A program made the position numbers and the translations under genes. This document shows, in pieces, positions 5,335-29,791 of a stretch of 38,200 bases of DNA. The DNA is taken from NCBI GenBank assembly GCA_016873355.1, contig VGXK01000001.1, positions 1 through 38,200 on the forward strand. The letters are read 5' to 3'. The stretch comes from Phycisphaerae bacterium. Its GTDB lineage: Bacteria > Planctomycetota > Phycisphaerae > Phycisphaerales > SM1A02. Every line of letters begins with the position of its first letter. Position 1 is the first letter of the stretch. The notes beneath the pieces were generated by a model that saw nothing but the letters and a program-made list of their open reading frames with translations, had not been told where the DNA came from and ran no database searches.

Positions 5335-6258
5335 TCACCGCTCTAGCGAACCATCGGACGGCGCGCTCGGTGTTGCGCTCGGCGTCGCGCCGCGGGTCGC
5401 CTTCGGCTTCGAGCTCGGCGCCGCGCTCGAATCGAGGCCCGCCGCCCAGAGGATTCCGCCGAGCAGATGCTCGCGGAAGAGCGGCTCGGAGAAGCTCTCC
5501 TTCGTGTGGCCGCCGCCCGTGTACCAAGAGCGGCCGCCGTCGAACTCGTGGTACCACGCGATCGGATGATCGGCGCCCATCGTGGCCGGCGCCGGTTCGT
5601 AGGTCGATTCGTCGAGCGACATGAGCACGCGGATTCCTTCGGTGCCGCGCGGATTCGATCGGAACGAGTACCACTCGTCGGTGCGCATCCAGCGTTCCGG
5701 AAGCATGCGCGTGCTCGCGTGATCGCGGACCTCCACGGTCTGCGTCGCAGACTGCACCGGCGGATGCGTCTGGAAGTACGCGCCGACGAGCTTGCCGTAC
5801 CAGGGCCACTCGTACTCGGTGTCGGACGCGGCATGAATCCCCGCATAGCCGCCGCCGGCGCGGATGTATCGCTCGAAGGCCGCTTGCTGCTCGTCGTTCA
5901 GGACTTCGCCGGAGGTCGAAAGCCAGACGACGGCGCGGTACCGCGTCAGGTTGTCGTCGGTGAACGCGGCGGCGTCTTCCGTCGCGTCGATCTCGAACGC
6001 GCCCGCGCCGATCTCGCGCACGGCGCGGATGCCGTCGGGAATCGAGTCGTGCCGGAAGGCCGCCGTCTTGGTGAAGACGAGCACGCGCGGCAGTGGCGCC
6101 GGCGCCGAATCGCCCTTCGGCTGCGGCGGCGCCGATTTCGGGGCCGGCGCAGCGCCCTGGGACGACGCGGCCGCCGGTCCCTGCCCGAGGCGGAGGCCGA
6201 CGGCCGCGATCATCATCAGAACGAACGCCGTGATCATCAACGGGCGCGAGCCGATCAT
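5335..6258 (-). CDS. ThuA-like (trehalose-utilisation family) secreted protein
   Basis: Signal-like N-terminus MIGSRPLMITAFVLMMIAAVGL. The region VLVFTKTAAFRHDSIPDGI ... VVWLSTSGEVL ... FERYIRAGGGYAGIHAASD ... WYGKLVGAYF is typical of ThuA-domain proteins. Confidence 0.8.
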   Translation of the reverse strand: MIGSRPLMITAFVLMMIAAVGLRLGQGPAAASSQGAAPAPKSAPPQPKGDSAPAPLPRVLVFTKTAAFRHDSIPDGIRAVREIGAGAFEIDATEDAAAFTDDNLTRYRAVVWLSTSGEVLNDEQQAAFERYIRAGGGYAGIHAASDTEYEWPWYGKLVGAYFQTHPPVQSATQTVEVRDHASTRMLPERWMRTDEWYSFRSNPRGTEGIRVLMSLDESTYEPAPATMGADHPIAWYHEFDGGRSWYTGGGHTKESFSEPLFREHLLGGILWAAGLDSSAAPSSKPKATRGATPSATPSAPSDGSLER

Positions 6259-6275
6259 GCCCGCAGGCTACTCGG

Positions 6276-9200
6276 TCATGGTTGCGCCGGCATCGGATCC
6301 ACGCGAATCGTGGCGTCGAGCAGGCCGAGATCGACGAGCCGCACCCGTGGCAGGCGAACGATCGCCACGCCGCTCACCGACCCGTGCGACTCGATCGTCG
6401 CGTCGATCGATCGAAGCGACTTCTCGAGCGCCGAATCGACCGCGGTGAAGCGCGCGACCACGGGCATGGGTTCCTCGCTGCCCGATGCGGCGGAGACCGG
6501 CGTGTCCGCATCCGGCGGCGACGACGATGCCTGCGCCAGTTCCTCCTTCGCCGCAAGCGCCTCGAGACCGGCGATCAAGAGCGACGCCTCGAGTCGCGAC
6601 GAGAGCTTCGTGAGCGACGCTTGACTGTATCGATCCGCCGCCGCCCCTCGTTCCGCATCGACGATCGCACGATGCGCCCGCATCTTCATGAACTGCGACG
6701 CCTTCGCGAGAAGGTCCGGCTTCGCGCACACGATCATGAACTCGTCGCCGAGCACGCGGAGCAACGCCGTGCCGCCGTTGCTTCTCCACTCGCCCGAGTC
6801 GACCATCGTCGTGAGCCGCTCGACGAGCTCCTCGACGCGTCGACGAACGAGTTCCATGTCGGCGGACTCCGCTCCGGATGGCCTGACGAGCGGTCGCAGG
6901 TCCCAGATCACGATCGTTTCATCGCCGACGCCGATCGACACGGGCGCCGCCGGCGGCGGCGCGGCGATCATGCCTCGAAGCGAGTCGAACATGCTCCGCA
7001 TCGTCTCGGCGACCCGGGAGTCCGCGTCGGTGACGACGACCCCCCCGATCAATCGAGTCGATCGCTCGCCGCCGGTCTGCTGCCAGGTCTCGGGCTCGAT
7101 CGCCTCCGTCGCCGCCTCGAGCAGGTCGCATCGCGCGTCGAACTCGGCGCCGTCTTCGGCCTTGAACGAGCGAATGTCGATCAGCGAGACCGTTCGCGGG
7201 TCCATCGGCACTTCGCTTCGAGTCACGGCGCCGATCGGCGATCGACCGATCTTGGCGAGCGCCGCGACGAAGCGATCGACCTTGGCGAGCACCGCGGGCT
7301 GATGCACGATCGCGATGCGCCCCGCCGGCAGAATCCTCGAGGCGCCCGCCCCTCCGCCGTTCTCGATCCAGCTCTGGGGATCGATGGCGGACATGATGCC
7401 GACCTGGAGCTCGCTCGCGTACTGATCGTCGATCTCCTTCGAGCTCTCGGGATCGGCGTCGGCCGGCGTGCTTTCGATGCCGAGAATCGCCTTGGCGTCG
7501 AGAACCCGAAGCGCTCGACTCGGAGCCGGCGACTCGTCGACTCGCGAATTCGGTGCGAGGTCGTGCGCGTCGCCGGCAGCCGCGGCCTTCCCGTCGAGCA
7601 GCTCTCCGACGCCGTCGTTCTTCAGCCACTTCTCGACTTCGCCGCGAGTCTGCGCGTCGACCTCCTTCAACGACGCGTCCGAGACTGCCGCCGGCGGAGT
7701 CATCGCGTCCGTCGGAGCGACGCCGGCGCCATCCGAGCGATCGGTGCGTTCCGGCGAAGTCGGCTCGCGCTCGCGAGGCTTGTGCTCACCCGCGTGCGCC
7801 ACGCCGAACCGATAGCCGGCGCGTTCCGCGCGGGCGCTGGGTTCGCCGATGGGAACTCCGCCGCCACCCCCGAAGCCGCCGCCGCCGCCTCCGACAACCG
7901 GAGTGCCCATGCTCACTCCTCGCGATGGGGGTCGTGGAGCGCCGGTGCCTCCCCATCTCCGGAGTTCCTCTCCACCGACCTCGCCGGGTTTCGCCTGACC
8001 GGCCTTCCCGGCGAACTTCATTCGAAGCTCGGCCTTCTCCCCGCTCGGCGCCGACGGTCTCGTGGCTCCGCCCTGCGTCAGGCGGCTCGAATCGGCAAGG
8101 GACTTGGACAACCTGCCGAAATCGCGAGCGGACTTGTCCTCGAGCCTGCGGCCCGCAGTCTCCGCGGGTGCGACGATCGCCGGAGGACGAGGAGAAGCGA
8201 TCGGCTGCGATGCCGGCGGTGGCGGCGGCGGTGGCGGCGGCGCCGCTACCGCCGCACTGTTTGGCGCCGCGGGGGCTTCGTTGCCGCTCGCCGGCGGTGC
8301 CGCTCCCGTCGCCAATGCATTCGAGGAAGTGCCTTCCTTCAGTCCCGAGAGACGCAGCCGGTCGACTTCCGTCGCGGCGGGATGGTTGATCGTGTGAACG
8401 CCGGCCGCGGCGGGATCGTTGCTCGTGAAAACGCCGGTCGCGGCGGCTGGCGCCTGGAATCCGTAGGTGTCGGCCAGCATTCCGAGCTTGAAGTCGGGCG
8501 CCTTGTCGAAGTCCAGCGGCGTCGCCAATCCTCCCGCCATGTAGAGATGCACCTCGTTGCCTTCGTCGTCGGCCATCATCTGCGGCGGCGCGCGAAGCAC
8601 CTTGAGCACCTCGCCCGCACTGCCGAAGTTGCCCTCCCAGCTCACGCCCTGCGGCAACTCGATCGGCACGGCCACGAGCACGGATCGACCGCCCACCGTC
8701 ACGCGCGACTTCTCCACCGCCACGAAACTCGTGAACGGCGACATGATGCGATGCTGCTCCGCGAGCCGCACCACCATGTCCCGAATCGGCGCCGGCACGT
8801 TCTCGTTCTGAAGTTCGTTCAAGTGCGGACGCAGGATGTCGTCCACCTGGAGCCGCGCCCAGATCGGCGCCACGACGCTCGAGTTGCCGTCGCCGTCGGT
8901 GAAATCGACGGGAATCGTCCGCTCCCACGGTCCTTGCCCGGTCATGCCGCGCACGCGGATCGAGCCGCGTCCCGACGCCGGGTATCGCCCCGCGATCACG
9001 AGCGGCTCGCGATCGTAGAGATCGGGAATGGCATCGGCCGGCGGCGTGACATGCGCCGTCTCGACGCCGTCGAACGACACGGAGATGTCCGTGAGCACGG
9101 GCGTGCGAACGCGATCGCTGAAGCGCGCGACGACTTCCTCCGCGTCGCTCGGCAGCAGCACGAACTCGGCGGCGCCGCGTCCCGCCCGCGCCATCTCCGA

Positions 9201-11390
9201 CAGCAGGAAGCGATTCACGCTGTTGCCGATGCCGAAGCTGAAGACGCGCGTGGTGCCCGCGTATCGACGCACCGCATCCACGATCGCCATGTCGTTGCCC
9301 ACATAGCCGTCGGTGAGGAAGCAGACGATGCGCGTGGGCGGCGCTCCCGGAGGCGGCGGCGAGGTCGCCGGCGCACCGGCCGTCGGCTCGTTCACGGGCA
9401 CCCAGCCCGGATCGTCGCGGCGTCGACTCTTCCAATTCGGCGCGTCGCCGGGCTTCAGCGCCGCGTCGATCGCCTTCATCATCTCCGTGCCGCCCGCGCC
9501 CTGCCGCGACTCCACGAACGCTCGCGCGAGCTTGAGGTTCTCCTCCGTCGCCGGCCGCGGCGCTGGCCACAGCACATGATGATCGCCGGCGAAGGTGATG
9601 AGGTTGAACGTGTCGCCCGTACGCATCGCGCCGAGCATTCGCGTCATCACTTCCTTGCTCTTCTCGATGGGGAAGCCGTTCATCGAGCCCGAGGTGTCGA
9701 GCACGAAGACGAGTTCCCGCGCTCGAATCGTCTCGGGCGCCACCCGCGCCGGAGGAATCATGTAGAGAAGGAAATAGCCGTCCTTGCCCGGCGAGCGCTG
9801 GGTGAGCACGCCTTCGGCCATCTCGCCGCCGGCGAGCTTCCAGGAGAGCACGAAGTCGCGGTTCGGAATCGTCTTGCCCTTCTCGAGCGTCACGACCGCG
9901 CGGCTCTGCGCCGGCTCGGAGACATCGATCTTGTGCAGCTCGCTGCGCAGGTTCGTGACGGCGGGTCCGCCCGTATCGATCGAGATGCGCAGGCTGAGAT
10001 CATGCCCCGCGCGCTCCGGCGGTCGCACCGGCATGGGCGTGATGAGCGCCGCGTCAGGCACCTGGTCCGTGCCCCGTGCGAATCCGGTGCCCGCGTTCTT
10101 CTCTCGCTTGGTTTCCGGGGGCGCGGGCGGACACCAGAACCAGCGGCCGGCGATCTCGCCGGTGCCGTCCGCGAGCAGCGTGCCGGGCTCCTCGCTCCCA
10201 TCGGGATACTTGACGATGAAGTCCGCGCGCACCTGCTCGAACGGGGGCGCGGCGCCCGCCGCCGCCACGCGAACCGGCCGCTCGATCGCCACCGCTCGCT
10301 GCAGCGCTTCGAGCAGTTCCATCGCCGTGATCGGGCCGACCTTGGCGGCGTTCTTCAACTGCTGCTGCTGCGTCATCTGCGCCGCCATCTGTTCCGGCGC
10401 AAGGAGGCGCACTCGATCGGGATCGAGACGAATCTGCGCCGGCGCCAGCAGGATCACGCCTTGTCGCAGCACCAGGCCCGCGGGCAGTCCGCCCATGCTC
10501 GGCGGCTGCGGCGGTCCGCCCGGAATGTAGCGCGGCCCCACCACCATCGGGAAGTCGAAGGTGAAGACGCCGTCGCGCATGGGAAGCGTTTCGACGTAGG
10601 AGATCTCGACGAGCACCTCCGCGCCCGGCTCGATGTTCGCCACGCTCTGCGTGAAGATGTTCGGGCGCTCCTGCTCGAGCAGGCTGGCGACGAATCCGTC
10701 GCGCCGCGCCGATTCGTAGATCTGGCGCGCGAGCGTTCGCTCCTTCACTTCGCCTTCGACGATGCGCTCCTCGCCGTGCGAGCGCACGATCATGCGCATG
10801 CGGTCGACCGCGGCGCGGTGGCTGAGCGGGAAGGTGTAGACCGCTTCGATGAGTCGCCCGTAGGTGTTCGCGTACTTCTGCGTCACCGTCACGCGCGACA
10901 CGAAGCCGGAGATCTGCGCGTCGACTGCGGTGTGCTGAAGCGGGCACGGACCGATGAGATTGCCGTCGCGATCGACGGCGTCCAGGCGCCCGCCCTCCGG
11001 CACCTGCACCAGGCCGATGTCGGCGCTCGCAGTGCGGGACGGCACGAGCATGAGGATGGCGCCCGCCACGAGCGCCACCGCCACCACCGCGGCCGCCCGC
11101 AGCGCCGGTGCCGTGCCGATGCGATGCAGCCGATCGCGCCAGGCGACGGGATGGCGCGCGAATGCGGCGCCCCCGGGGGCGCCGCCCGCGTTCGTCCGTT
11201 CCCCCGCCACCCGTGCGAGCAATTCGTCGCGATGCGCGGCCGCGGCCACCGCGCTCTCGTCGTGCCAGGCTCGAAGCAGCGAGTCGAGTTCGTCGCGCGG
11301 GGGCGCCGATGCCTCGATGCCGCCGTCGGTCCGGTTCGGAGTCTCGTTCGCTTCGCGACCTTCGTTCTGACCGTGTCGATCGTTCGTCAT
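6276..11390 (-). CDS. Giant (1704 aa) single-pass membrane protein: cytoplasmic anti-sigma-like N-terminus, TM helix, VIT domain, vWA domain, Pro/Gly low-complexity linker, three tandem W-x3-GG repeats
   Basis: ATG 11390-11388 overlaps the sigma stop (ATGA). TM span is APALRAAAVVAVALVAGAILMLV. VIT-like region runs ISGFVSRVTVTQKYANTYGRLIEAVYTFPL ... FDFPMVVGPRYIPG. PPERAGHDLSLRISIDTGGP follows, then a vWA MIDAS start ELVFVLDTSGSM. The ORF-track extension to 11756 runs antisense-free through the sigma gene and is rejected. Confidence 0.85.
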   Translation of the reverse strand: MTNDRHGQNEGREANETPNRTDGGIEASAPPRDELDSLLRAWHDESAVAAAAHRDELLARVAGERTNAGGAPGGAAFARHPVAWRDRLHRIGTAPALRAAAVVAVALVAGAILMLVPSRTASADIGLVQVPEGGRLDAVDRDGNLIGPCPLQHTAVDAQISGFVSRVTVTQKYANTYGRLIEAVYTFPLSHRAAVDRMRMIVRSHGEERIVEGEVKERTLARQIYESARRDGFVASLLEQERPNIFTQSVANIEPGAEVLVEISYVETLPMRDGVFTFDFPMVVGPRYIPGGPPQPPSMGGLPAGLVLRQGVILLAPAQIRLDPDRVRLLAPEQMAAQMTQQQQLKNAAKVGPITAMELLEALQRAVAIERPVRVAAAGAAPPFEQVRADFIVKYPDGSEEPGTLLADGTGEIAGRWFWCPPAPPETKREKNAGTGFARGTDQVPDAALITPMPVRPPERAGHDLSLRISIDTGGPAVTNLRSELHKIDVSEPAQSRAVVTLEKGKTIPNRDFVLSWKLAGGEMAEGVLTQRSPGKDGYFLLYMIPPARVAPETIRARELVFVLDTSGSMNGFPIEKSKEVMTRMLGAMRTGDTFNLITFAGDHHVLWPAPRPATEENLKLARAFVESRQGAGGTEMMKAIDAALKPGDAPNWKSRRRDDPGWVPVNEPTAGAPATSPPPPGAPPTRIVCFLTDGYVGNDMAIVDAVRRYAGTTRVFSFGIGNSVNRFLLSEMARAGRGAAEFVLLPSDAEEVVARFSDRVRTPVLTDISVSFDGVETAHVTPPADAIPDLYDREPLVIAGRYPASGRGSIRVRGMTGQGPWERTIPVDFTDGDGNSSVVAPIWARLQVDDILRPHLNELQNENVPAPIRDMVVRLAEQHRIMSPFTSFVAVEKSRVTVGGRSVLVAVPIELPQGVSWEGNFGSAGEVLKVLRAPPQMMADDEGNEVHLYMAGGLATPLDFDKAPDFKLGMLADTYGFQAPAAATGVFTSNDPAAAGVHTINHPAATEVDRLRLSGLKEGTSSNALATGAAPPASGNEAPAAPNSAAVAAPPPPPPPPPASQPIASPRPPAIVAPAETAGRRLEDKSARDFGRLSKSLADSSRLTQGGATRPSAPSGEKAELRMKFAGKAGQAKPGEVGGEELRRWGGTGAPRPPSRGVSMGTPVVGGGGGGFGGGGGVPIGEPSARAERAGYRFGVAHAGEHKPREREPTSPERTDRSDGAGVAPTDAMTPPAAVSDASLKEVDAQTRGEVEKWLKNDGVGELLDGKAAAAGDAHDLAPNSRVDESPAPSRALRVLDAKAILGIESTPADADPESSKEIDDQYASELQVGIMSAIDPQSWIENGGGAGASRILPAGRIAIVHQPAVLAKVDRFVAALAKIGRSPIGAVTRSEVPMDPRTVSLIDIRSFKAEDGAEFDARCDLLEAATEAIEPETWQQTGGERSTRLIGGVVVTDADSRVAETMRSMFDSLRGMIAAPPPAAPVSIGVGDETIVIWDLRPLVRPSGAESADMELVRRRVEELVERLTTMVDSGEWRSNGGTALLRVLGDEFMIVCAKPDLLAKASQFMKMRAHRAIVDAERGAAADRYSQASLTKLSSRLEASLLIAGLEALAAKEELAQASSSPPDADTPVSAASGSEEPMPVVARFTAVDSALEKSLRSIDATIESHGSVSGVAIVRLPRVRLVDLGLLDATIRVDPMPAQP
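6669..7508 (-). repeat. Three tandem divergent protein repeats (about 76-87 aa each) inside the giant gene
   Basis: Units lie at 7248-7508, 6969-7196 and 6669-6920. Each has h-x-h-x-D-h-[RK] near its start, then [DE]-x-x-x-W-x3-GG (SWIENGGG, TWQQTGGE, EWRSNGGT), then a hydrophobic strand and a helix. Confidence 0.7.
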
Positions 11391-11968
11391 GACTGCACCG
11401 CCTCTCGCAACTGCGCCGCGAGCGCTTCCCGCGCCCGCGCCAGCAGCTTGTAGAACGCGCTTCGACCAAGGCCCAGCGCCGACTGCGCCGCGGCCACGGG
11501 ATCCGAATCCAGGTAATAGAGGTGGATGGCCAGCCGCTCGTCGTCGTCGAGACGATCGAGCGCGTGCGTGAGCCGATCCAATCGTTCGCGCTGCACGGTG
11601 GCCTGCGCCGATGCGGGCGCCACCGTCGTCGTGGCTTCGTCGATCATGCGTTGCATGGCCGCTCCTTCGTGGTGGCGGCGACGACGCTCGGAGCGACGAC
11701 GCTCCGAGCAGACCAGCCGTGCGATCCGATAGACCCAGGAACGGAAGCCGCGGCAATCGTGGACTTCGTCGAGCTTGCGGAAGGCACGGATGAATGTCTC
11801 CTGAAGCGCGTCCTCGGCTTCGGCATCCGCCGCGGATCCGCCGGCGTTTCGCCGACAGAGCGACAGCACCACCGCGGCGTGCCGGTCGTAGATCCGGCGG
11901 AATGCCGCTTCGTGGCCCTGCCGGGCCTCCGCGAGGTCCGCGCAGTCGTCGTTCACCGTGTCGTTCAT
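11387..11968 (-). CDS. ECF-type RNA polymerase sigma-70 family factor (193 aa)
   Basis: Region 2 reads FRRIYDRHAAVVLSLC ... DAEDALQETFIRAFRKLDEVHDCRGFRSWVYRIA. Region 4 reads LDRLDDDERLAIHLYYLDSDPVAAAQSALGLGRSAFYKLLARAREAL. Start is taken at MNDTVNDD (11968). The longer ORF to 12526 is antisense to lipA. Confidence 0.88.
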   Translation of the reverse strand: MNDTVNDDCADLAEARQGHEAAFRRIYDRHAAVVLSLCRRNAGGSAADAEAEDALQETFIRAFRKLDEVHDCRGFRSWVYRIARLVCSERRRSERRRRHHEGAAMQRMIDEATTTVAPASAQATVQRERLDRLTHALDRLDDDERLAIHLYYLDSDPVAAAQSALGLGRSAFYKLLARAREALAAQLREAVQS

Positions 11969-12019
11969 GGCCGCTCGAATCGGATTGTCTCCACCAACGG
12001 CTACGATCGTTCCCTCACC

Positions 12020-13028: not shown

Positions 13029-13460
13029 TCAGATGAACCGAAGCCCGGCTTCGTGGTGATCGATGCGACCCTCGTCGCGACGGATCGCCCTGCTCCAGAC
13101 CACGATGAACGAACGACGGATCGGCACTCGCTGCACGCCGTGATTCGTCGCCGCGCCGCCGACGCACGCGTGCCCTTCGCCGACCCCGCCGTTGCCGCCG
13201 TCGGCGAAGTCGGCAACCAGCTCGATCGCCGTTCCGGTCATGCCGTCTGGATGGCAGCAGGTGGTGCGGATCCGCGCCCCCGTCTCGCTCACGTCGACGG
13301 TCTGGTAGCGCATGGGTTCGCCCGGCCGATGGTGCCAGACGAGCACCAGCCAGCCCTGGAACTCGAGGCGATCGCCCCTGCGTCGCTCTGCTCCGCCGAT
13401 GGCCGCCGAGGTCGACTCGAACCCCGACGGTTCGGCCCGATGATCGGGAGCCGATTCCAT
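13029..13460 (-). CDS. Stand-alone PilZ-domain protein (143 aa), predicted c-di-GMP receptor
   Basis: Canonical RxxxR (ERRRGDR) is followed about 25 aa later by DxSxxG (DVSETG). It ends with GLRFI. The stop lies 1 nt from the lipA stop (convergent). Confidence 0.75.
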   Translation of the reverse strand: MESAPDHRAEPSGFESTSAAIGGAERRRGDRLEFQGWLVLVWHHRPGEPMRYQTVDVSETGARIRTTCCHPDGMTGTAIELVADFADGGNGGVGEGHACVGGAATNHGVQRVPIRRSFIVVWSRAIRRDEGRIDHHEAGLRFI

Positions 13461-13592
13461 GACGCAAGGCTCGAGTTCGTGCGAACCGGAGCAAGGCCGC
13501 ACGGCCGGACGGCGTCGCGTCGCGGTCGCCTTCGACCGGTGATTCGGCCCAGTCCGCTTCAGTCGCCCCGCGCGCCCACCGATAAGCCCACC

Positions 13593-14090
13593 ATGGCCAA
13601 GGCCACTCGCTTCGATCTCTCGCAACTGGAAGGCTGCACGGGCACGGTCTCCGATACGCCCGTGGCCATGCCTCGCGCGCTTCGCCCCGCACGACCGACC
13701 GACGCGCAAGATCGAGCGAAGCGTGTCGGGGCCGATGCGGCAACGCCCCCTGCGCCGACCGCGCCTTCGACGAGTTCGACCGCGCCGAGCGCATTGCCGG
13801 CGCAGACGGAACCGTCGGAATCGGCGGCGGCGCCCGAAGCGCCCGACGCCGCGCCGGCCCAGAGACTCGCGTCGACGAACGACGACGCCGCGGCCGCCCC
13901 CGCCGCACCTGCACCCGTTCCCGCGCCTCGCCGCAGCGTCTTCGACCTCGAGAACGATCGTCGAGCCAGGGAGCTTGATCGCGCCGACGATTCCGAGTCG
14001 CTCGATCGAGTTCGACTCGGCGTGATTCTCGCGCTCACGCTCTCGGCCTGGATTCCGGTGCTGCTCATCTGGTGGGCGCGGCTCGGATGA
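13593..14090 (+). CDS. Hypothetical tail-anchored protein (165 aa), Pro/Ala-rich and probably disordered, with a C-terminal TM helix
   Basis: Begins MAKATRFDLSQLEG and ends with the C-terminal span VRLGVILALTLSAWIPVLLIWWARLG. It lies 25 nt upstream of the M16 peptidase gene. The upstream part of ORF 13053..14090 is antisense to the PilZ gene. Confidence 0.5.
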   Translation: MAKATRFDLSQLEGCTGTVSDTPVAMPRALRPARPTDAQDRAKRVGADAATPPAPTAPSTSSTAPSALPAQTEPSESAAAPEAPDAAPAQRLASTNDDAAAAPAAPAPVPAPRRSVFDLENDRRARELDRADDSESLDRVRLGVILALTLSAWIPVLLIWWARLG

Positions 14091-14115
14091 TCTTCCGAGC
14101 CCTACACTCGCGGCC

Positions 14116-15348
14116 ATGTCCGTCGAGTTCCGACACGCCGCGCTCCCGAACGGTCTGACGGTCATCGCCGAGGTGGACGGCGACGCGCACACGGCCGCCG
14201 CCGGTTTCTTCGTGCGCACCGGCGCCCGCGACGAGTCGCGCGAGCTCATGGGGGTGTCGCACTTCCTCGAGCACATGATGTTCAAGGGCAGCGAGCGGCT
14301 CGGCGCCGAAGCGGTGAACGAGGCGTTCGACTCGATCGGCGCCGACCACAACGCGTTCACGTCGTCCGAACTCACCGCGTTCCATGCGCACGTGCTGCCC
14401 GATCGCTTCGACGAAGCCGTCGACACGCTCGCCGAGATCATGCGGCCGGCGCTTCGCACCGCCGACTTCGACGAGGAGAAGGGCGTCATCCTCGAAGAGA
14501 TCGCCATGTACGAGGACAACCCCTTCTGGCGTCTCTACGAGGCGGCGATGGATCGGTACTACGGCGATCATCCGCTCGGCCATCGCGTGCTCGGCACGCG
14601 CGACACGATCACCGCGCTCTCGCGCGATTCGATGCGGGAGTACTTCGAGCATCGATACTCCGCCGACAACACGGTCGTGGCGGCGGCGGGGCGCGTCGAC
14701 TTCGACGCGCTCGTGGCGCGGATCGGCGAGCGCTGCGGATCGTGGAAGCGGACCGGTGCGGTGCGCACGCATCGGCCGTTCGAACCCAGGGCGCTCTTGC
14801 TCCGAGACCGACATCCGAGCGCGCACCGCTCCTATCTGATGTTCGCGGCTCCGGCGCCGCCCTTCGAGGATCCGCGCCGCTACGCGGCCGCGGTGGCCAT
14901 GCAGATCCTGGGCGACGGCGAAGGCTCCCGCTTCCACTGGGCGCTCGTCGACACCGGCATCGCCGAAGAAGCCGACGCCAGCTACGACCCGCGCGACGGA
15001 CTCGGCCTCTTCATGATGAATGCCGCATGCCCCACCGACGCCGCGGACGAGGTGGAGCGCATCGTGCGCGAGCAGATCACGGCGCTTCGCGACTCGCTCG
15101 ATGAAGGCGACCTGCTCCGCGCCAAGCGCAAGATCGCCACTGCGATCGCGCTGGCGGGCGAGCGTCCTGCCGGGCGCATGCAGCGAATCGGCGTGCTCTG
15201 GACGATGCGCGGAATGCACCGAACGCTCGAGCAGGAAACCGAGGAGATCGAGCGGCTCGCGCTCGACGATCTGCGATCCTGCCTCGACGCCTTTCCGCCC
15301 GCGCCGTTGCTGGCGGCGCGGCTGGAACCGGAACAGACCAGCCGCTGA
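14116..15348 (+). CDS. M16 family (pitrilysin/insulinase-like) zinc peptidase
   Basis: The inverted zinc motif HFLEHMMFKG (HxxEH) sits near the N-terminus. Length and overall pattern fit the M16 family. Confidence 0.88.
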   Translation: MSVEFRHAALPNGLTVIAEVDGDAHTAAAGFFVRTGARDESRELMGVSHFLEHMMFKGSERLGAEAVNEAFDSIGADHNAFTSSELTAFHAHVLPDRFDEAVDTLAEIMRPALRTADFDEEKGVILEEIAMYEDNPFWRLYEAAMDRYYGDHPLGHRVLGTRDTITALSRDSMREYFEHRYSADNTVVAAAGRVDFDALVARIGERCGSWKRTGAVRTHRPFEPRALLLRDRHPSAHRSYLMFAAPAPPFEDPRRYAAAVAMQILGDGEGSRFHWALVDTGIAEEADASYDPRDGLGLFMMNAACPTDAADEVERIVREQITALRDSLDEGDLLRAKRKIATAIALAGERPAGRMQRIGVLWTMRGMHRTLEQETEEIERLALDDLRSCLDAFPPAPLLAARLEPEQTSR

Positions 15349-20281: not shown

Positions 20282-20467
20282 GCCGCCCGTCGAACTCACG
20301 CTCCCGCGCTGGTGGGCACTCGTGCGAGAGCTTGTGCGGAACTGGGTTGAACGGTTCGAATGCTTGGCTTCGCAGTGCGCCGACGCGCCTGCGGATTCTT
20401 TGGTGGGCGGAGTCGGTGTGTTCAGGCTGCCCGTGAGCACGCGGACGATTCCCGTGGAAGGGCGCGC

Positions 20468-21826
20468 ATGTCGCGAGCGGACCGTGAACTGCGGGACGGC
20501 ATTCTGGCGTACCTGCGGAAGCACCATTCCGGGCTCTGCCGCCACTGGTTCGACGACATCTCGGTGATCGGGATCGAGGGAGGCGTGCTGCGGCTCGTCA
20601 TGGAGGACGAGGTTCGACGCCGCTATCTGCAGCGCAGCGCGGCGCCGGCATTCGCGGAGGCGGCGCAGACGGTGACTGGGCGCCTGCTTGCCGTGCGATT
20701 CCTCGCGTCGAAGACGGGCTCGCCCGCCATCGATCGCGCCGACGGCACGAACGCGGACGGCTCGGAGCCGCCGGTGTCGCTCGACGACCAGATGATCCTG
20801 AGCCCCGACTTCAGCTTCGATCAGTTCGTGATGGGGCCGGAGAATCGGCTGGCGCATGCGGCGGCGCAGGCGGTGGCCGACCGGCCGGGGCGTGCGTACA
20901 ACCCGTTCGTCATCCACGGAGGCGTCGGACTTGGAAAGACGCACCTCCTTCAGGCCGTCTGCCAGGCGGTGCTTTCGCGCCAGCCATCGACGCGGGTGAC
21001 CTACATCAACTGCAGCACGTTCATCGACGCCTTCCACGACTGCGTGAAGGCCGGCCGCATGCCGGAGTTCCGCAACCGCTTCCGCATGGTCGACATGCTC
21101 GTCATCGACGACGTGCACCTCCTGTCGCGACACGAGCAGACGCAGGAGGAGTTCTTCCACACCTTCAACGCGCTGCACCAGGCCGGCAAGCAGATCATCC
21201 TGAGCGCCGATTCGATCCCGAACGAGATTCCGGCGCTGACCGAGCGGCTGGTCAGCCGGTTCAACTCGGGGCTGGTGGCGCGGGTCGATCGACCGGGATT
21301 CGAAACGAGAGTGGCGATCGTCAAGGCCAAGGCGCAACTCCACCAATTGACATTGCCGGAGGACGTGCCCGCATATGTCGCGGCTCGGGTGGCCTCGAAC
21401 ATCCGCGAGCTCGAGGGGGCGCTCGCGAGATTGCGGGCGCTGGCGCTGGCCACCGCGCGGCCGATCGACCTCGATCTCGCGAAGTTGGCGCTCGCCGACG
21501 AAGGGCGCCCCGACGACGAGCGCAGCCCCTCGATCCAGACGATCCTCGAAGCGGTGGTCCGCTACTACAACCTGCGGCTGGCGGACCTGCTCGGCAAGCG
21601 CCGGCACAAGTCCGTGGCATTGCCGCGGCAGGTGGCCATGTGGCTTGCGCGACGGCACACGCGGCACAGCCTGGAGGAGATCGGCGGCCACCTGGGCGGC
21701 CGTGATCACAGCACGGTGCTGCACGCGGTGCGGACGGTCGATCACCGCCGCGAACGCGATCCAACCCTGTCGAGCGACGTGGCCCGGCTCGAGCGATCGC
21801 TCGAGCGGCGGCACGCCACCGAGTGA
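20468..21826 (+). CDS. dnaA: Chromosomal replication initiator protein DnaA
   Basis: Walker A is FVIHGGVGLGKTHLLQAV and Walker B is LVIDDVHLL. The C-terminal DnaA signature reads VALPRQVAMWLARRHTRHSLEEIGGHLGGRDHSTVLHAVRTV. Start is chosen at MSRADRELRDGILAYL (domain I). Confidence 0.95.
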   Translation: MSRADRELRDGILAYLRKHHSGLCRHWFDDISVIGIEGGVLRLVMEDEVRRRYLQRSAAPAFAEAAQTVTGRLLAVRFLASKTGSPAIDRADGTNADGSEPPVSLDDQMILSPDFSFDQFVMGPENRLAHAAAQAVADRPGRAYNPFVIHGGVGLGKTHLLQAVCQAVLSRQPSTRVTYINCSTFIDAFHDCVKAGRMPEFRNRFRMVDMLVIDDVHLLSRHEQTQEEFFHTFNALHQAGKQIILSADSIPNEIPALTERLVSRFNSGLVARVDRPGFETRVAIVKAKAQLHQLTLPEDVPAYVAARVASNIRELEGALARLRALALATARPIDLDLAKLALADEGRPDDERSPSIQTILEAVVRYYNLRLADLLGKRRHKSVALPRQVAMWLARRHTRHSLEEIGGHLGGRDHSTVLHAVRTVDHRRERDPTLSSDVARLERSLERRHATE

Positions 21827-22210: not shown

Positions 22211-23191
22211 TCAGATTCGCTGCGCGTGACCTGTGGATAACCGTCCGACGGCGAGCGGCCCGCGGGTTCGCAGGGGCTGGCACCCGGGACAGAACCAGGT
22301 GCCGCGTCCCGCGACGACGATGCGTCGAATCATCGACCGATCGCCGCGCGACCGGCAGCGCTCGCAGTCGGCGCCGGCGCGTCCGTAGACGCGATGCTGG
22401 CGCTGATACGAACCGAAATCTCCCGACGGATCTCGATAGTCGCGGACGGTGGAGCCGCCCTGTTCGATCGCGTCGCGCAGCACGATCCGGATCGCGTCGA
22501 CGAACTCGACGGCGAGGTGCGCCAGTCGATTCGCGCGGATGCAGGGATGCATGGCGATGCGGTGCATGATCTCGTCGGCGTAGATGTTGCCGATGCCGGC
22601 GACGATCGCCTGATCGAGAAGCAGGCTCTTGATCGGGCGTTTCGATCGGCGCAGCGATGCGGCAAGCTCCGTTGCATCGAGGTCGAGCGCGTCGGGACCC
22701 AGGTTCGACCAGTGCCGATCGAGTGCGCCTCGGGTCGGCAGCGCGGCGAGGCCGCCGAAACGGCGCGGATCCACGAAGCGCAGTTCGTAGTCGCGCTCGC
22801 CCGCGCGAAGCGACCACTCGGCGTGCGTGTGCGGAATCCGAGGCGCCGGCCATGGAGCCGGGCCGCCGTTCGCCCGCTGGTCGAGCAGCAGTCGCCCGCT
22901 CATGCCGAGCTGGACGAGCAGCACGCGGCCATCCTCCGCGACCAGCGCCAGTTGCTTGCCGCGGCGAACGAGCGACTCGATCGTCGCTCCGACGAGCAGC
23001 GAGCGTTCCGCGGCGGCGCTGCGGGGCCGGAGCGCCCGCTCCGGGCCTCCGCCCCGGCGCGGCAGGCGTTCATGCCGCTCGAGCGAGCGCAGCACGTCGC
23101 GCCGGCGCAGCAGTGCGCGCAGAACCGAGGCGCCCCTCAGGTGCGCCTCGAGTCGGCGGCGGATGGTCTCGACCTCGGGAAGCTCGGGCAT
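22211..23191 (-). CDS. mutM: Formamidopyrimidine-DNA glycosylase (Fpg/MutM)
   Basis: N-terminal MPELPEVE (the catalytic Pro must follow the initiator Met, which fixes the start at 23191 rather than 23221). H2TH motif is LLDQAIVAGIGNIYADEI. C-terminal zinc finger is CERC ... CPGC. Confidence 0.92.
   Translation of the reverse strand: MPELPEVETIRRRLEAHLRGASVLRALLRRRDVLRSLERHERLPRRGGGPERALRPRSAAAERSLLVGATIESLVRRGKQLALVAEDGRVLLVQLGMSGRLLLDQRANGGPAPWPAPRIPHTHAEWSLRAGERDYELRFVDPRRFGGLAALPTRGALDRHWSNLGPDALDLDATELAASLRRSKRPIKSLLLDQAIVAGIGNIYADEIMHRIAMHPCIRANRLAHLAVEFVDAIRIVLRDAIEQGGSTVRDYRDPSGDFGSYQRQHRVYGRAGADCERCRSRGDRSMIRRIVVAGRGTWFCPGCQPLRTRGPLAVGRLSTGHAQRI
22232..22240 (-). promoter_or_regulatory. 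Perfect consensus DnaA box TTATCCACA
   Basis: Plus strand reads TGTGGATAA. It lies in the last 21 codons of mutM, read in frame as TTA-TCC-ACA. I did not notice TTA codons elsewhere in the coding sequence I translated, consistent with the strong G/C third-position bias. Confidence 0.55.
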
Positions 23192-23213
23192 CGGCGCTTC
23201 ATATACTTCGCCC

Positions 23214-24290
23214 ATGTCCACTCAGCCATCGCCGCCGTCCTCGCCGCAACCAGGCCATGTGCGAAGCCAGGATCCGGTGAAGGCGATCGCCGAGACGCGG
23301 GAAGCGATCGGCCGGCTGCGCGCGGAGGTGCAGAAGGTGATCGTGGGGCAGGAGCAGGTCTTCGACCAGATCCTGCTCGCCATCTTCTGCGGCAGCCACG
23401 CGATCCTCGAAGGCGTGCCGGGACTGGCGAAGACGCTCATCATCAGCACGATCGCGAAATCGATGTCGCTCGAGTTCAGCCGCATCCAGTTCACGCCCGA
23501 CCTGATGCCGAGCGACATGACGGGCACCGAGGTGATCGAGGAGGACAAGTCGACGGGATCGCGCAGCCTTCGCTTCGTGCGCGGACCGATCTTTGCGCAC
23601 GTGGTGCTGGCGGACGAGATCAATCGCACGCCGCCGAAGACGCAGGCGGCGCTGCTCGAAGCGATGCAGGAGCGACAGGTCACCGTCGGCGGCGTGGCCC
23701 ACAAGCTGCCGACGCCGTTCTTCGTGCTCGCCACGCAGAACCCGATCGAGCAGGAAGGCACCTACCCGCTTCCCGAGGCGCAGCTCGATCGTTTCATGTT
23801 CAACATCCGCGTGCAGTACCCGAGCGAGCAGGAGGAATTCGAAGTGGTGCGCCGCACCACGAGCGGCACGGCGCCCGAGCCTTCGCCGGTGCTCGGTGCG
23901 CGCGACGTCACGCGCATCCAGGAGCTCGTGCGGCAGGTGCCGATCGCCGACCATCTCGTGCAATACGCGCTTCGGCTCGTGCGGGCGACGCGCTCCGGCG
24001 AGCACTCACCGAAGATCGTTCGCGATTACCTCTCCTGGGGCGCCGGCCCGCGCGCGAGTCAGTTCCTGGTGCTCGCCGCCAAGGCGCTTGCGGTGCTCGA
24101 GGGCGCCGAGCACGTCATGCCGGCGCACCTCCAGGCGGTGGCGCCGCCGATCCTTCGGCATCGGATCATCACGAACTTCAACGCCGAAGCCGACGGCGTC
24201 TCGAGCGATCGCATCGTCGAGACGCTGCTCGAGGAGATTCCCATCGATCGAGCCGCCGCGTCCGCACCGATCGGCCGCGTGATCTCGTAG
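23214..24290 (+). CDS. MoxR-family AAA+ ATPase
   Basis: VIVGQEQVFDQILLAIFCGSHAILEGVPGLAKT (Walker A variant typical of MoxR) and VVLADEINRTPPKTQAALLEAMQE. The start could lie a little downstream of ATG 23214. Confidence 0.92.
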   Translation: MSTQPSPPSSPQPGHVRSQDPVKAIAETREAIGRLRAEVQKVIVGQEQVFDQILLAIFCGSHAILEGVPGLAKTLIISTIAKSMSLEFSRIQFTPDLMPSDMTGTEVIEEDKSTGSRSLRFVRGPIFAHVVLADEINRTPPKTQAALLEAMQERQVTVGGVAHKLPTPFFVLATQNPIEQEGTYPLPEAQLDRFMFNIRVQYPSEQEEFEVVRRTTSGTAPEPSPVLGARDVTRIQELVRQVPIADHLVQYALRLVRATRSGEHSPKIVRDYLSWGAGPRASQFLVLAAKALAVLEGAEHVMPAHLQAVAPPILRHRIITNFNAEADGVSSDRIVETLLEEIPIDRAAASAPIGRVIS

Positions 24291-24297
24291 AAGCTTC

Positions 24298-25254
24298 ATG
24301 CGAGCCGAGCAGTACCTGGCGCCGGAGACGCTCTCGCAGCTCGCGCCGTTCTCGCTGCGGGCGCGGATGATCGTCGAGGGCGTGATGAGCGGCATGCACC
24401 GCTCTCCGTACCAGGGCCTCGCCGTCGAATTCGCGGAGCATCGTCCGTACACGCCCGGCGAAAGCCTTCGGCATCTCGACTGGAAGGTCTACGGGCGCAG
24501 CGACAAGCTCTACGTGAAGCGCTACCTCCAGGAGACGAACCTGGACGTGGTGCTGCTGATCGACGCCTCCGCGTCGATGCGCTTCGGAACGCTCGGTCAG
24601 AAGTCGGGATGGGGCGGAACCGAGGCGGGACGATCGCGCTCGCTGTGGACCAAGTTCGATTGCGCCACGGCCACGGCGGTGGCGCTCGCATACCTCTGCC
24701 TCGCGCAGCGGGACCGCGTGGGGCTCGTGCTCTTCGCCGACGGCGTGCAGGCGTCGCTGCGGCGATCGGGCGTGCGCGACCAGTGGCGCAAGATCGTGCA
24801 GGCGCTGACCACGGAACCGGTCGAACGCGCCACGATGATCGGCCGCAGCTGCGACGAAGTGCTGGCGACGACCCGCGGCCGCTGCCTCTTCTTCATCCTG
24901 AGCGACTTCCTCTTCCCGCCGGAGGAACTGCGGCTCGCGCTCGCGCGGCTGCGGCATCGAGGACACGACGTCGTGCTCGTCGAGATCCTCGACCGCCAGG
25001 AGATCCGCTTCGAGCTCGACGATCCGACGATCTTCGAGGGACTCGAAGGCGAGCCGCGCGTGATGGCGGACGCACGGCTTCTGCGGCGCGCCTACCTTGA
25101 CGAGCTCGCACGACATCGCGCGGAGATCGAACGACTCGTGCGCGGGTTCGGATACGACCGCGTGTCGCTCGACAGCCACGATTCGGTCGGTCCCGCGCTC
25201 GCCTCGCTGCTGGCGCGGCGCGAGGCGCTGGCGCGGCGGAGCGGCGCCGGATGA
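24298..25254 (+). CDS. DUF58-family (vWA-like) protein
   Basis: YVKRYLQETNLDVVLLIDASASMRFG is typical of DUF58 partners of MoxR. It starts 7 nt after the MoxR stop. Confidence 0.85.
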   Translation: MRAEQYLAPETLSQLAPFSLRARMIVEGVMSGMHRSPYQGLAVEFAEHRPYTPGESLRHLDWKVYGRSDKLYVKRYLQETNLDVVLLIDASASMRFGTLGQKSGWGGTEAGRSRSLWTKFDCATATAVALAYLCLAQRDRVGLVLFADGVQASLRRSGVRDQWRKIVQALTTEPVERATMIGRSCDEVLATTRGRCLFFILSDFLFPPEELRLALARLRHRGHDVVLVEILDRQEIRFELDDPTIFEGLEGEPRVMADARLLRRAYLDELARHRAEIERLVRGFGYDRVSLDSHDSVGPALASLLARREALARRSGAG

Positions 25255-27410
25255 ACCTGCTTCACCCCGGAATGGCGCTGGCCGCGCTCGCGGCCGTGAG
25301 CGTGCCGATCGTCATCCACCTGCTGCTCCGGCGGCGGCGGCGCGTGATCCAATGGGCGGCCATGGATCTGCTGAAGCGTGCGATGCAGCGAGACCGTCGT
25401 CGGCAGCGCGTCGAGCGCTGGCTGCTGCTCGCGGCGCGGTGTCTGCTCATCGCCATCGCGGGAATCGCGCTGGCGCAGCCGTTCGTGAAGTCGAGCGAGG
25501 CCTTCGGCGGCTCGGTGAGGACGGTGTGGCTCGTGATCGACGACGGCGTGGCGAGCGCGGAGCGCCTTCCCGACGGAAGCACGGCGCTCGAGCGGAGCAC
25601 GGCGGAGGGTCGGCGCATGCTCGAATCGCTCGGCGCCGCCGATCGCGTGGGCGTGATCTCCGCGGCGGCGCCGGTCCGACGGCTCGTCGACCCGCCGACC
25701 GCGGACAAGACGCGGCTCGATTCCCTGCTCTCGCAGATGTCGCCCGCCGACACCGGAAGCGATCTCTCCGCGGCGATTCGTTCCGCGGCGGAGGCGGCGC
25801 GGGAGTCGGAGGAGGCCGGCGAGATCGTGCTGCTCAGCGGATTCCGTCGCGGTTCGCTCGATCCATCGTCGATGGCGCCCTCGGTCGATGCGGAGGTGAA
25901 TGCCCGCTGGACGCTCTCGGCGCTCGAACCACTCTCGGGCTTCCCGTCGAACGCGTGGATGACGCGGGCGGAGGCGATCCGCACGGGCGAGGAGTCGGGA
26001 ATGGAAGGCGATCGCACGGTTCGCGTGCAGATCGAACGGCGGAGCGAGGCGCTTCCGCGAAGCGTTCGACGAGTCACCTCGGCGGGACCCGCGGCGGGCG
26101 CCGCCGACATCGCCCTGGACGCGGGCGAGCGCCGCGGCGGCGCCGATCTTCGGCTGCGGCGAGACGGCGCCGATGCGGAGGAATCGGGCGCCGCCTCGAT
26201 TTCGCTCGAGCTCGACCACGACGCCCAGCCGCGCGACGATCGACTCTTCGCGGTGCTTCCTTCCGAGCACCCGGCGCGGGTGGTCGTGCTCGATCGCCGC
26301 GGCGGTTCCGTGCGGGACCTCGAGCGCCTCGGCTCCGGCGTGTGGATGGCGCGAGCACTCGATCCCGGCAAGTCGGGCGCGCTCCAGGTGGACGAAGTCG
26401 ATCCGGGCTCGCTCGATCGCGCCATGCTCAAGGGCGCCGACGCGGCGATCGTGGCGAGACCCGATCTCGTGACCGCCGACGGATGGAAGATGCTGCGCGA
26501 GTTCGTCGCCGCCGGCGCCGCGCTGCTCGTGACGCCGTCGCCGGACGATTCCGGCCAGCGCTGGACGGAGTCGTTCCGAAGCTCGCTCGCGCCGTCGTGG
26601 ACGATCGATCCGGAAGTGGAGGGCGCGGTCACCGCGTGGCGGCTCGCGCCGCAGCAGCCCAGCTCGGCCACGCTGCGGCAGCTCGGCTCCGAGATTTCCG
26701 TGCTCGCGGCCCCGGTTTCGGTTTCGCGGCGGATCCGCATCGCCGCGCCGCCGACCGACGCGGAGGCGGCGCTCGTCTTCGACGACTCGACGCCGATGCT
26801 GCTCTGCGGTCGGCCGGGAGGCGCCTCGCGCGGATGGGTGGCGCTGCTCGCATGCGCCCCGGAGCTCTCGTGGACGGATCTGCCGGTTCGGCCGCTCATG
26901 GTCCCGCTGCTCCAGGAGGTCGTGCGACAGGGCCGGGCGCTCGCGACGATGGACGCGGGCAACCTCGTCGGCGCGCCGGCGTCGCTTCCGCGCGGCGCGG
27001 CGGCGCTCGAGATCGTTCCGCCCGCAGGTTCGGAGGGTGCGCCGCGAGGGACCGCGATCCTTCCCGCCGGCGCGGACGGGCGCACGCGCGATCCGGTGCT
27101 TGCGCCGGGACTTCACCGGGCGCTCGACGACTCGGGCCGCCCGATCGGCACCGTCGCCGTGAACGTCGATCCCGCCCGCGCGAGCATCGAGCCGAACGAT
27201 CCCGGCGCGGTTCTGGCGTGGCTCGAGCGAAGCGGATCGTGGCGCTGGCGCGGCGACGGATCGACCGAAGGAGAGGGCGCCTCCGCGAGCGCCGATGCCG
27301 AGGCGTCCTGGAGCATCTGGCTGCTCGGCGCGGCGGTCGCGCTCGCGCTGCTCGAGACGATCATGGCGCGGCTGCTGAGCCGAAGCGACGCGACGGAGCG
27401 CGGCGCATGA
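25251..27410 (+). CDS. BatA_N-type double-transmembrane protein with a degenerate vWA-like region (719 aa)
   Basis: ATGA overlap with the DUF58 stop. N-terminus MNLLHPGMALAALAAVSVPIVIHLLLRRRRR matches the aerotolerance-regulator N-terminal double-TM pattern. VWLVIDDGVAS lacks an intact DxSxS. A C-terminal TM span is present. Confidence 0.8.
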   Translation: MNLLHPGMALAALAAVSVPIVIHLLLRRRRRVIQWAAMDLLKRAMQRDRRRQRVERWLLLAARCLLIAIAGIALAQPFVKSSEAFGGSVRTVWLVIDDGVASAERLPDGSTALERSTAEGRRMLESLGAADRVGVISAAAPVRRLVDPPTADKTRLDSLLSQMSPADTGSDLSAAIRSAAEAARESEEAGEIVLLSGFRRGSLDPSSMAPSVDAEVNARWTLSALEPLSGFPSNAWMTRAEAIRTGEESGMEGDRTVRVQIERRSEALPRSVRRVTSAGPAAGAADIALDAGERRGGADLRLRRDGADAEESGAASISLELDHDAQPRDDRLFAVLPSEHPARVVVLDRRGGSVRDLERLGSGVWMARALDPGKSGALQVDEVDPGSLDRAMLKGADAAIVARPDLVTADGWKMLREFVAAGAALLVTPSPDDSGQRWTESFRSSLAPSWTIDPEVEGAVTAWRLAPQQPSSATLRQLGSEISVLAAPVSVSRRIRIAAPPTDAEAALVFDDSTPMLLCGRPGGASRGWVALLACAPELSWTDLPVRPLMVPLLQEVVRQGRALATMDAGNLVGAPASLPRGAAALEIVPPAGSEGAPRGTAILPAGADGRTRDPVLAPGLHRALDDSGRPIGTVAVNVDPARASIEPNDPGAVLAWLERSGSWRWRGDGSTEGEGASASADAEASWSIWLLGAAVALALLETIMARLLSRSDATERGA

Positions 27411-29725: not shown

Positions 29726-29791
29726 TGCGGTTCGACGGCGGCGCCGCAGCGTCGGCAATCGCCGACTCGAAGCGTCGGTAAGAGGAGGTCC

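Follow-up and report, generated by a model that had tools for sequence, protein, structure and literature searches.

We examined a 38,200-nucleotide stretch of DNA (hereafter the window; G+C ~70%) that occupies positions 1 to 38,200 of contig VGXK01000001.1 from a Phycisphaerae bacterium (phylum Planctomycetota; assembly GCA_016873355.1), and in particular a gene for an extracytoplasmic function (ECF) sigma factor and the giant gene that directly follows it. Both are encoded on the minus strand, as is a ThuA-family gene behind them (5335-6258; PF06283, E = 1.2e-80) whose product has an N-terminal signal-like segment. The sigma factor gene (11390-11968, or 11387-11968 with its stop codon) encodes 193 amino acids (aa), and the giant gene (6279-11390, or 6276-11390 with its stop codon) encodes 1704 aa plus the stop. 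The two genes share an ATGA at 11387-11390, in which the TGA of the sigma factor gene overlaps the ATG of the giant gene, a junction already read from the sequence in an initial annotation of the window and indicative of translational coupling. We conclude that the two products probably form a cognate ECF sigma/anti-sigma pair of a previously undescribed subtype, with a proteolytic mechanism of sigma factor release.

The upstream product is an ECF sigma factor, as initially annotated. It matches PF04542 (Sigma70_r2) above the cut-off (1.8e-12) and TIGR02937, the NCBIfam model of the ECF superfamily, with 69.2 bits against a cut-off of 42.9, and it matches PF08281 (Sigma70_r4_2) below the Pfam cut-off (1.7e-4; 21.6 bits vs 25.7). 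Its organization is that of ECF (group 4) sigma-70 factors, with sigma-2 and sigma-4 domains only and a length within ~170-220 aa, and it aligns over its full length to CnrH, SigW and SigL. The closest solved relative in the PDB is CnrH (4cxf, E = 2e-12), and all equivalog NCBIfam models scored far under their cut-offs. At E<=1e-10 there are 469 homologues, the best 120 of which are 51-87% identical and derive mostly from Phycisphaerae metagenome-assembled genomes (MAGs). The start of the giant gene at 11390 is backed by the conserved ATGA and by the N-termini of homologues. A start further upstream was rejected because the frame, open to 12014, looks like a GC-rich artefact and overlaps the sigma factor gene. 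This frame runs 208 codons upstream of the ATG and across the sigma factor gene (stop-to-stop open reading frame [ORF] 6276-12014) and could mislead gene callers on the choice of start; one database entry (P0323) is a frameshifted call in which the sigma factor and the N-terminus of the giant protein are fused.

The bulk of the giant protein is built around a VIT domain at residues 151-265 (10596-10940, minus strand, as for all parts of this gene; PF08487, 5.7e-31; PARP4 VIT region in the PDB, 4.9e-31) and a vWA domain at residues 559-751 (9138-9716; VWA_3 [PF13768] 3.4e-16, VWA [PF00092] 5.2e-11, ITIH4 in the PDB 1e-19). The initial annotation had recognized both domains, and the start (DTSGS, residues 565-569, 9684-9698) of a metal ion-dependent adhesion site (MIDAS). 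The site proves to be complete, and its residues D565, S567, S569, T635 and D694 are invariant in 32 homologues, so that the protein shows the ITIH-like succession of VIT and then vWA with a full MIDAS. Like free-standing VIT-vWA proteins (ITIH heavy chains, TIGR03788), it thus carries a VIT and vWA core with a MIDAS, but it adds a cytoplasmic extension, a 366-aa linker, repeats, a C-terminal domain and coupling to a sigma factor. The match to TIGR03788, named “marine proteobacterial sortase target”, is very strong (8e-136), and ITIH4, ITIH1 and PARP4 are matched in the PDB. Identity with the sortase target family was nevertheless rejected, as the score of 454 bits stays below the cut-off of 551.65 and the C-terminus, ...RVDPMPAQP, carries neither a sorting signal nor a terminal membrane span.

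Beyond the vWA domain, the initial annotation described low-complexity (Pro/Gly) and repetitive sequence over about 700 residues. Sequence of both kinds is indeed present, but the region contains a disordered 366-aa Ala/Gly/Pro-rich linker recognized by composition (residues 930-1295, 7506-8603; A 17%, G 13%, P 12%), which is not alignable among homologues, followed by three structured repeats and a folded C-terminal domain. The repeats (residues 1296-1582, 6645-7505), detected by self-alignment and jackhmmer, are ~95 aa long, carry the motif W..(N)GG and form beta-beta-alpha units; they occur in 12 of 120 homologues, in 1-4 copies. The C-terminal domain (122 aa, residues 1583-1704, 6279-6644; jackhmmer) is conserved in 111 of the 120. 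An AlphaFold2 model of residues 1296-1704 has a mean predicted local distance difference test (pLDDT) score of 85, and a Foldseek search with the last domain points to a subtilisin-propeptide (I9)-like alpha/beta fold (probability ~1.0, target TM-score 0.7-0.8, weak E-values of 0.03-0.3). Orthologues have between 0 and 4 W..GG repeats (homologues considered: P0039, P0046, P0265/L086), and some longer homologues have Pfam Secretin_N matches in the C-terminal region equivalent to the repeats, which hints at ring-building or secretin-N-like modules, possibly in contact with structures of the outer envelope.

The N-terminus of the giant protein contains a conserved element that we regard as a candidate anti-sigma element. 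Residues 1-32 are variable and disordered in the model, and residues 33-61 (DELDSLLRAWHDESAVAAAAHRDELLARV; 11208-11294), defined by alignment and AlphaFold2, follow the consensus PPPxDELDxLLRxWHxxNAxRAxAxRDxLL, in which D36, L39, W42, H43, A50 and R54 are invariant. AlphaFold2, run with a 40-sequence alignment, predicts one long cytoplasmic helix over residues 34-68 (mean pLDDT 87-96 in 10-residue blocks over residues 31-60). Conservation is concentrated on one side of the helix (moment 0.187 vs 0.072 for permutations, p = 0.003), and this one-faced pattern, with its invariant W-H and R, suggests a specific protein partner. The following residues, ~62-95, form a linker that is variable in length and sequence and is modeled with low confidence. 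As the initial annotation had noted, the HxxxCxxC zinc motif is absent; there is in fact no Cys in residues 1-125, and the N-terminus is probably of a type other than the zinc-binding anti-sigma (ZAS) domains. The cysteines of the sigma factor itself (C9, C38, C71, C87) are conserved in its family, C38 invariantly, and the motifs DDC, DCxGF and VCSE recur; given the invariant His of W42-H43, a redox or metal part in the interaction of the sigma factor with the partner helix is conceivable.

To place this element in its genomic context, we examined 84 loci, 80 from a scan of one genome per species and 4 from metagenome contigs. Wherever a motif-bearing VIT-vWA gene had readable upstream DNA (35 loci), a sigma factor gene lay directly upstream on the same strand (35/35), and the encoded sigma factors matched that of the window with phmmer E-values of 1e-42 to 1e-62. 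The pairing in related genomes that the initial annotation had proposed to check is present throughout these 35 loci. The ATGA overlap occurs in 31 of the 35, the remaining four having TAA or TAG with a short gap, and called genes overlap by 4 nt also in L001, L003, L004, L085-L087, L088 and L090. On the other hand, ~45 homologues that lack the motif and have ordinary signal peptides (from Acidobacteriota, Nitrospirales and some Planctomycetota) have no adjacent sigma factor gene; in these VIT-vWA proteins, absence of the motif and absence of the sigma factor go together. The reverse test, starting from the sigma factor, gave the same pairing, as all three homologues (53-69% identity) were followed by a VIT-vWA gene with a 4-nt overlap. 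One locus found in this way, in a Phycisphaeraceae MAG (L087), is syntenic with the window (lipA, M16 peptidase, RecO, GGDEF, ThuA, DeoC), and this gene order assigns the window to Phycisphaerae.

The motif is also found without the VIT-vWA core. A 39-aa motif profile retrieved 133 proteins at E<=1e-3 among 1.84 billion cluster representatives, nearly all of them VIT-vWA proteins or fragments. However, P0257 combines the motif and a membrane span with a TPR-like region, and three minimal proteins (P0318, P0339, P0340) consist of the motif, a span, a short linker and the same C-terminal domain, without VIT-vWA. In both variant loci that were looked up (P0257 and P0339), an ECF sigma factor gene lies directly upstream with a 4-nt overlap, and its product is 52% and 47% identical, respectively, to the window sigma factor. 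Conversely, the VIT-vWA paralogue P0064 has a classical LTAYALGELD-type N-terminus in place of the motif, with a weak zf-HC2 match (E = 0.008). Judged from gene context, the sigma factor family tracks the N-terminal motif and not the ectodomain, because variants with a TPR-like region or nearly no ectodomain keep the overlapping upstream sigma factor. A cognate sigma-binding module whose outer domains can be exchanged would produce just this pattern.

Such tracking bears directly on a reading in which the giant protein is not an anti-sigma factor at all, the sigma factor simply driving a giant envelope or adhesion protein encoded in its own operon and the helix serving dimerization, targeting or delayed export. 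In its favor, the motif has no sequence or profile similarity to known anti-sigma domains, and there are other large exported proteins whose signal peptides carry long N-terminal extensions. Yet it would leave unexplained why the motif follows the sigma factor family even where the ectodomain is TPR-like or nearly absent, why motif-less VIT-vWA proteins never have the sigma factor, why the 4-nt overlap is kept in ~90% of loci and why conservation is confined to one helix face with an invariant W-H and R. Moreover, no other anti-sigma candidate is conserved beside the sigma factor in the loci examined. We therefore consider this reading highly improbable. Based on the conserved context and the modularity of the proteins, the N-terminus of the giant protein very likely acts as an anti-sigma factor.

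The initial annotation went further and proposed that the giant protein is an anti-sigma factor whose VIT-vWA module is the sensor. Its first part agrees with the anti-sigma position of the gene and the co-occurrence of motif and sigma factor, but the second fits less well, since motif and sigma factor also occur with a TPR-like or almost no ectodomain; a sensory role of the VIT-vWA module is an inference only.

Several known systems help to place the pair. The sigma-then-anti-sigma operon logic, the single span and the probable stepwise proteolysis recall RseA/sigmaE and other class I systems, but class I anti-sigma domains are four-helix structures of ~80-100 aa and the giant protein lacks such a domain, its conserved region being only ~30 residues long and modeled as a single helix. 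Another parallel is CnrY, a purely helical anti-sigma factor of fewer than 50 residues that wraps its sigma factor in place of a four-helix class I domain and is the class II prototype (PMC7406223). The sigma factor that CnrY binds in Cupriavidus metallidurans, CnrH, is the closest solved relative of the window sigma factor, and the window element would fit in its length and predicted helical nature; a short helical binder is thus plausible. However, we detected no sequence similarity between the motif and CnrY, one continuous helix is predicted for the motif and two are present in CnrY, and CnrY is a small protein encoded at position -2 that works with CnrX.

Anti-sigma factors with a vWA domain and DUF3520 have been predicted for ECF289, one of the four groups that came from the old CnrH-like ECF20 (PMC7826278). 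These too are encoded at +1 to an ECF sigma factor of the former ECF20 (CnrH-like) neighborhood and have an extracytoplasmic vWA. The giant protein is set apart from them by domain content, having a VIT domain and no DUF3520 (E<=0.01), and by its N-terminal motif; the classical LTAYALGEL-type N-terminus occurs only in the paralogue P0064. Hence the earlier statement that no characterized example of this architecture is known needs qualification with respect to vWA-bearing anti-sigma factors (PMC7826278), but it holds in that we found no report of a VIT-vWA anti-sigma factor. The literature searched gave no link between a VIT domain and an anti-sigma factor, a search that stopped short of the supplementary descriptions of ECF groups and of a planctomycete survey, where an earlier listing is possible.

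The anchor of the giant protein offers a clue to how the sigma factor might be released. A hydrophobic span at residues ~96-117 (11040-11105; hydropathy, alignment and AlphaFold2, with a predicted helix at residues 95-115) could be a membrane anchor or the h-region of a signal peptide, and Arg residues upstream of it favor an N-in topology. The initial annotation was right about ~95 N-terminal residues and one hydrophobic span; its statement that there is no signal peptide is misleading, as the span is preceded by Arg and followed, in residues 118-123, by Pro and then A121-S122-A123 (11022-11030), a signal-peptidase-I-type AxA site that lies 8 residues ahead of VPEGG, a conserved stretch in the VIT region. 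Position -1 (equivalent to A123) is Ala in 166 of 174 family members (~95%; 32/32 in a smaller alignment), position -3 is A, V, T, S or G in 169 of the 174, and position +1 is never Pro. The family alignment also has Pro at -6 to -8 and Arg residues ahead of the hydrophobic stretch. The hallmarks of signal peptidase I substrates are thus all present in the sequence, namely a positive n-region, a hydrophobic h-region, a helix breaker, small residues at both -3 and -1 and a +1 position free of Pro. A twin-arginine translocation (Tat) signal was considered and rejected, since the family alignment has no twin-arginine consensus before the hydrophobic span.

The site lies 3-10 residues ahead of the first conserved VIT strand across the family, and in VIT-vWA homologues without the extension, ordinary short signal peptides occupy the equivalent place with respect to that strand. 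Because of these n-, h- and c-regions, the conformity to the AxA rule and the equivalent placement in free-standing homologues, the sigma-coupled proteins appear best described as exported VIT-vWA proteins whose signal peptide carries a cytoplasmic extension of 50-100 residues. The conserved AxA suggests that signal peptidase cuts the ectodomain away from the anti-sigma part, and from its conservation we think it probable that the site is indeed used by this enzyme.

There is precedent for such a step. In RsiV/sigmaV of Bacillus subtilis and C. difficile and in RsiP/sigmaP of B. thuringiensis, signal peptidase is the site-1 protease and a site-2 protease acts after it (PMC4183432, PMC6066255, PMC8844934). 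Like RsiV and RsiP, the giant protein has a single span and a short cytoplasmic N-terminus (with predicted sigma binding), an AxA-type site for signal peptidase immediately beyond the membrane and an ectodomain that may control access to it. There are also differences. The window system is found in Planctomycetota and involves another sigma factor family; its cytoplasmic element, predicted to be one helix of ~30 residues, resembles neither RsiV nor RsiP; and its ectodomain is a 1580-residue VIT-vWA-linker-repeat protein for which both cleavage and gating are predicted.

Putting these observations together, we propose the following model. The ATGA overlap would keep synthesis of the sigma factor (193 aa) and of the giant protein at a constant ratio, and the cytoplasmic N-terminus of the latter would hold the sigma factor at the membrane, the predicted binder being the amphipathic helix at ~33-61 (LDxLLRxWHxxNAxxAxxxRDxLL). 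This helix would be an N-terminal extension of an otherwise normal Sec signal peptide, which would place the VIT-vWA core, linker, repeats and C-terminal domain outside the cytoplasmic membrane. Because the span looks like a signal peptide, release would most likely occur by regulated intramembrane proteolysis started, as for RsiV and RsiP, by signal peptidase I, here at A121-x-A123, and a site-2 protease and cytoplasmic proteases would then clear the remaining stub. The least secure step, which we put forward only tentatively, is that the state of the VIT-vWA/MIDAS ectodomain, altered for example by ligand or surface contact, decides whether this first cut is made.

The freed sigma factor would probably drive its own operon. 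A GGAGACA box (11986-11992, minus strand) 23 nt upstream of the sigma factor ATG is a candidate -10-like element, and a (G/T)GAGAC(A/T) or GGACA box begins exactly 23 nt before the sigma factor start in ~17 distinct homologous loci, with an A/T-rich GAAT-like stretch ~13-18 nt further upstream. The whole window contains only 5 matches to the GAGACA box on both strands, and we found no sigma-70-type promoter, nor any terminator inside the operon. The box may fit the autoregulated promoter usual for ECF sigma factors and is a putative lead only.

A number of observations weigh against a pair that works in this way. The motif shows no similarity to known anti-sigma domains in Pfam, NCBIfam or the PDB, searched with residues 1-130 at E<=10 in Pfam, and with a single sequence and a 62-sequence profile in the PDB; even at E<=10, no zf-HC2, RskA or RseA Pfam match was found in residues 1-130. 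It is also far shorter than class I anti-sigma domains. A scan of window ORFs revealed no site-2 protease. An AxA site is lacking in the minimal variants P0318, P0339 and P0340, and signal peptidase therefore cannot be required throughout the motif family. Finally, the AxA site may be cut constitutively during export, as in the free-standing homologues, and this would take the ectodomain out of any sensing role.

Alternatively, release might not involve proteolysis, with the helix binding the sigma factor, a ligand at the vWA MIDAS or the C-terminal domain causing a conformational change through the span, and the AxA site being a relic of an ancestral signal peptide. The minimal variants lack AxA yet retain the motif, span and C-terminal domain, and the co-occurrence of motif and sigma factor is accounted for equally well. 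However, Ala at -1 in 95% of the family and the strict avoidance of Pro at +1 are hard to explain for an unused site, and the linker between helix and span is variable and modeled with low confidence, which argues against rigid signal transmission through the span. Thus, we regard this mechanism as quite improbable.

If, instead, the cut is constitutive, the 123-residue remnant (helix plus h-region) would be the whole anti-sigma factor. The mature VIT-vWA protein would leave, signal-peptide or site-2 peptidases would clear the remnant and free the sigma factor, and the latter would report export and processing of the giant protein and not ligand binding. This is in line with n-, h- and c-regions and an AxA conserved as well as in a true signal peptide, with the cleavable signal peptides of free-standing homologues at the same position, with a cleavage site just 3-10 residues before the first conserved VIT strand and with the occurrence of the motif next to quite different ectodomains. 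It gains some support from the prediction that ITIH-type VIT-vWA cores are deeply 6_3 knotted (bioRxiv 10.1101/2023.06.16.545156), because a 6_3 knot needs a free chain end. On the other hand, a constitutive cut combined with an autoregulated promoter leaves no obvious control point, and the minimal variants have no AxA to be cut. The strong conservation of the MIDAS and the C-terminal domain in the sigma-coupled family fits a functional ectodomain, although it is silent on sensing. On balance, we consider release coupled to export in this form rather unlikely, while preferring the regulated, signal-peptidase-started release described above; the cut at the AxA may be gated by the ectodomain or may be constitutive, so that it reports export and processing of the giant protein. 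In a more speculative and somewhat doubtful development of this idea, a new single-helix class of sigma-binding domain would have arisen by N-terminal extension of a cleavable Sec signal peptide. The cell would read out as transcription how the probably knotted giant VIT-vWA protein is exported and processed by signal peptidase, each processed precursor would leave a 123-residue sigma-loaded remnant, and clearance of these remnants would set sigma factor activity.

The surroundings of the pair differ among loci. In the window, the ThuA-family gene starts 17 nt past the stop of the giant gene, as initially noted, and the two were taken, together with the sigma factor gene, to be co-transcribed. 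Locally this is consistent with the lack of a convincing terminator between the giant and ThuA genes, but the adjacency is not conserved elsewhere. In the syntenic locus L087, ThuA follows only after ~480 nt and an ORF of opposite orientation, and other loci have no ThuA; as the adjacency occurs in the window only, the idea of ThuA as a conserved third gene of the operon was rejected. Only ~60 nt upstream of the window sigma factor gene, a divergent gene for lipoyl synthase begins. In several distant loci (L001, L003, L004), genes for an outer-membrane efflux protein, a CzcB/YknX-type membrane-fusion protein and RmuC lie upstream of the sigma factor. CnrH-type sigma factors are linked to metal efflux, and these neighbors could represent conserved synteny or a functional hint.

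Elsewhere in the window there is a MoxR (AAA_3)-DUF58-BatA/vWA operon of the Bat aerotolerance type (22791-27410, plus strand), which constitutes a second vWA system, and in the minimal-variant loci L090/L091 the pair is followed by AhpC, DUF58 and TgpA transglutaminase. The sigma module could conceivably be linked to systems of the MoxR/DUF58 type. The window probably spans the chromosomal replication origin, since it contains a dnaA gene (20351-21826, plus strand; Bac_DnaA, 5e-60) and a cumulative GC skew minimum at ~20 kb (profile around 19-20 kb). A 1212-aa ORF at 29726-33364 (plus strand) has a coding-like codon bias and no Pfam match, and a probably spurious 501-aa ORF at 13029-14534 (minus strand), also without a Pfam match, overlaps the gene for the M16 peptidase.

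Overall, the feature is real, strongly conserved and non-random, and it is kept across Phycisphaerae-type planctomycetes. An ECF sigma factor with a membrane-anchored anti-sigma factor is an already known kind of system, and vWA-bearing anti-sigma factors had already been predicted; the new aspects are the minimal single-helix partner motif and its place on the signal-peptide-like anchor of a giant VIT-vWA protein. In bacterial signal transduction, ECF sigma/anti-sigma pairs constitute the third main route, and Planctomycetota encode dozens of ECF sigma factors per genome, almost none of which, to our knowledge, has a known regulator. For the Phycisphaerae-type planctomycetes, our analysis defines one module that unites a sigma factor family, a 30-residue partner motif and a conserved processing site (~40 loci), set against more than 1300 VIT-vWA homologues at E<=1e-5, motif-less forms included. 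If the motif binds the sigma factor, it would represent a new minimal class of anti-sigma domain, and if the proposed processing is true, the use of signal peptidase as a site-1 protease would extend beyond Firmicutes into a distant phylum. For bacterial VIT-vWA proteins, the roles of which are largely unknown, the module provides a testable link to gene regulation.

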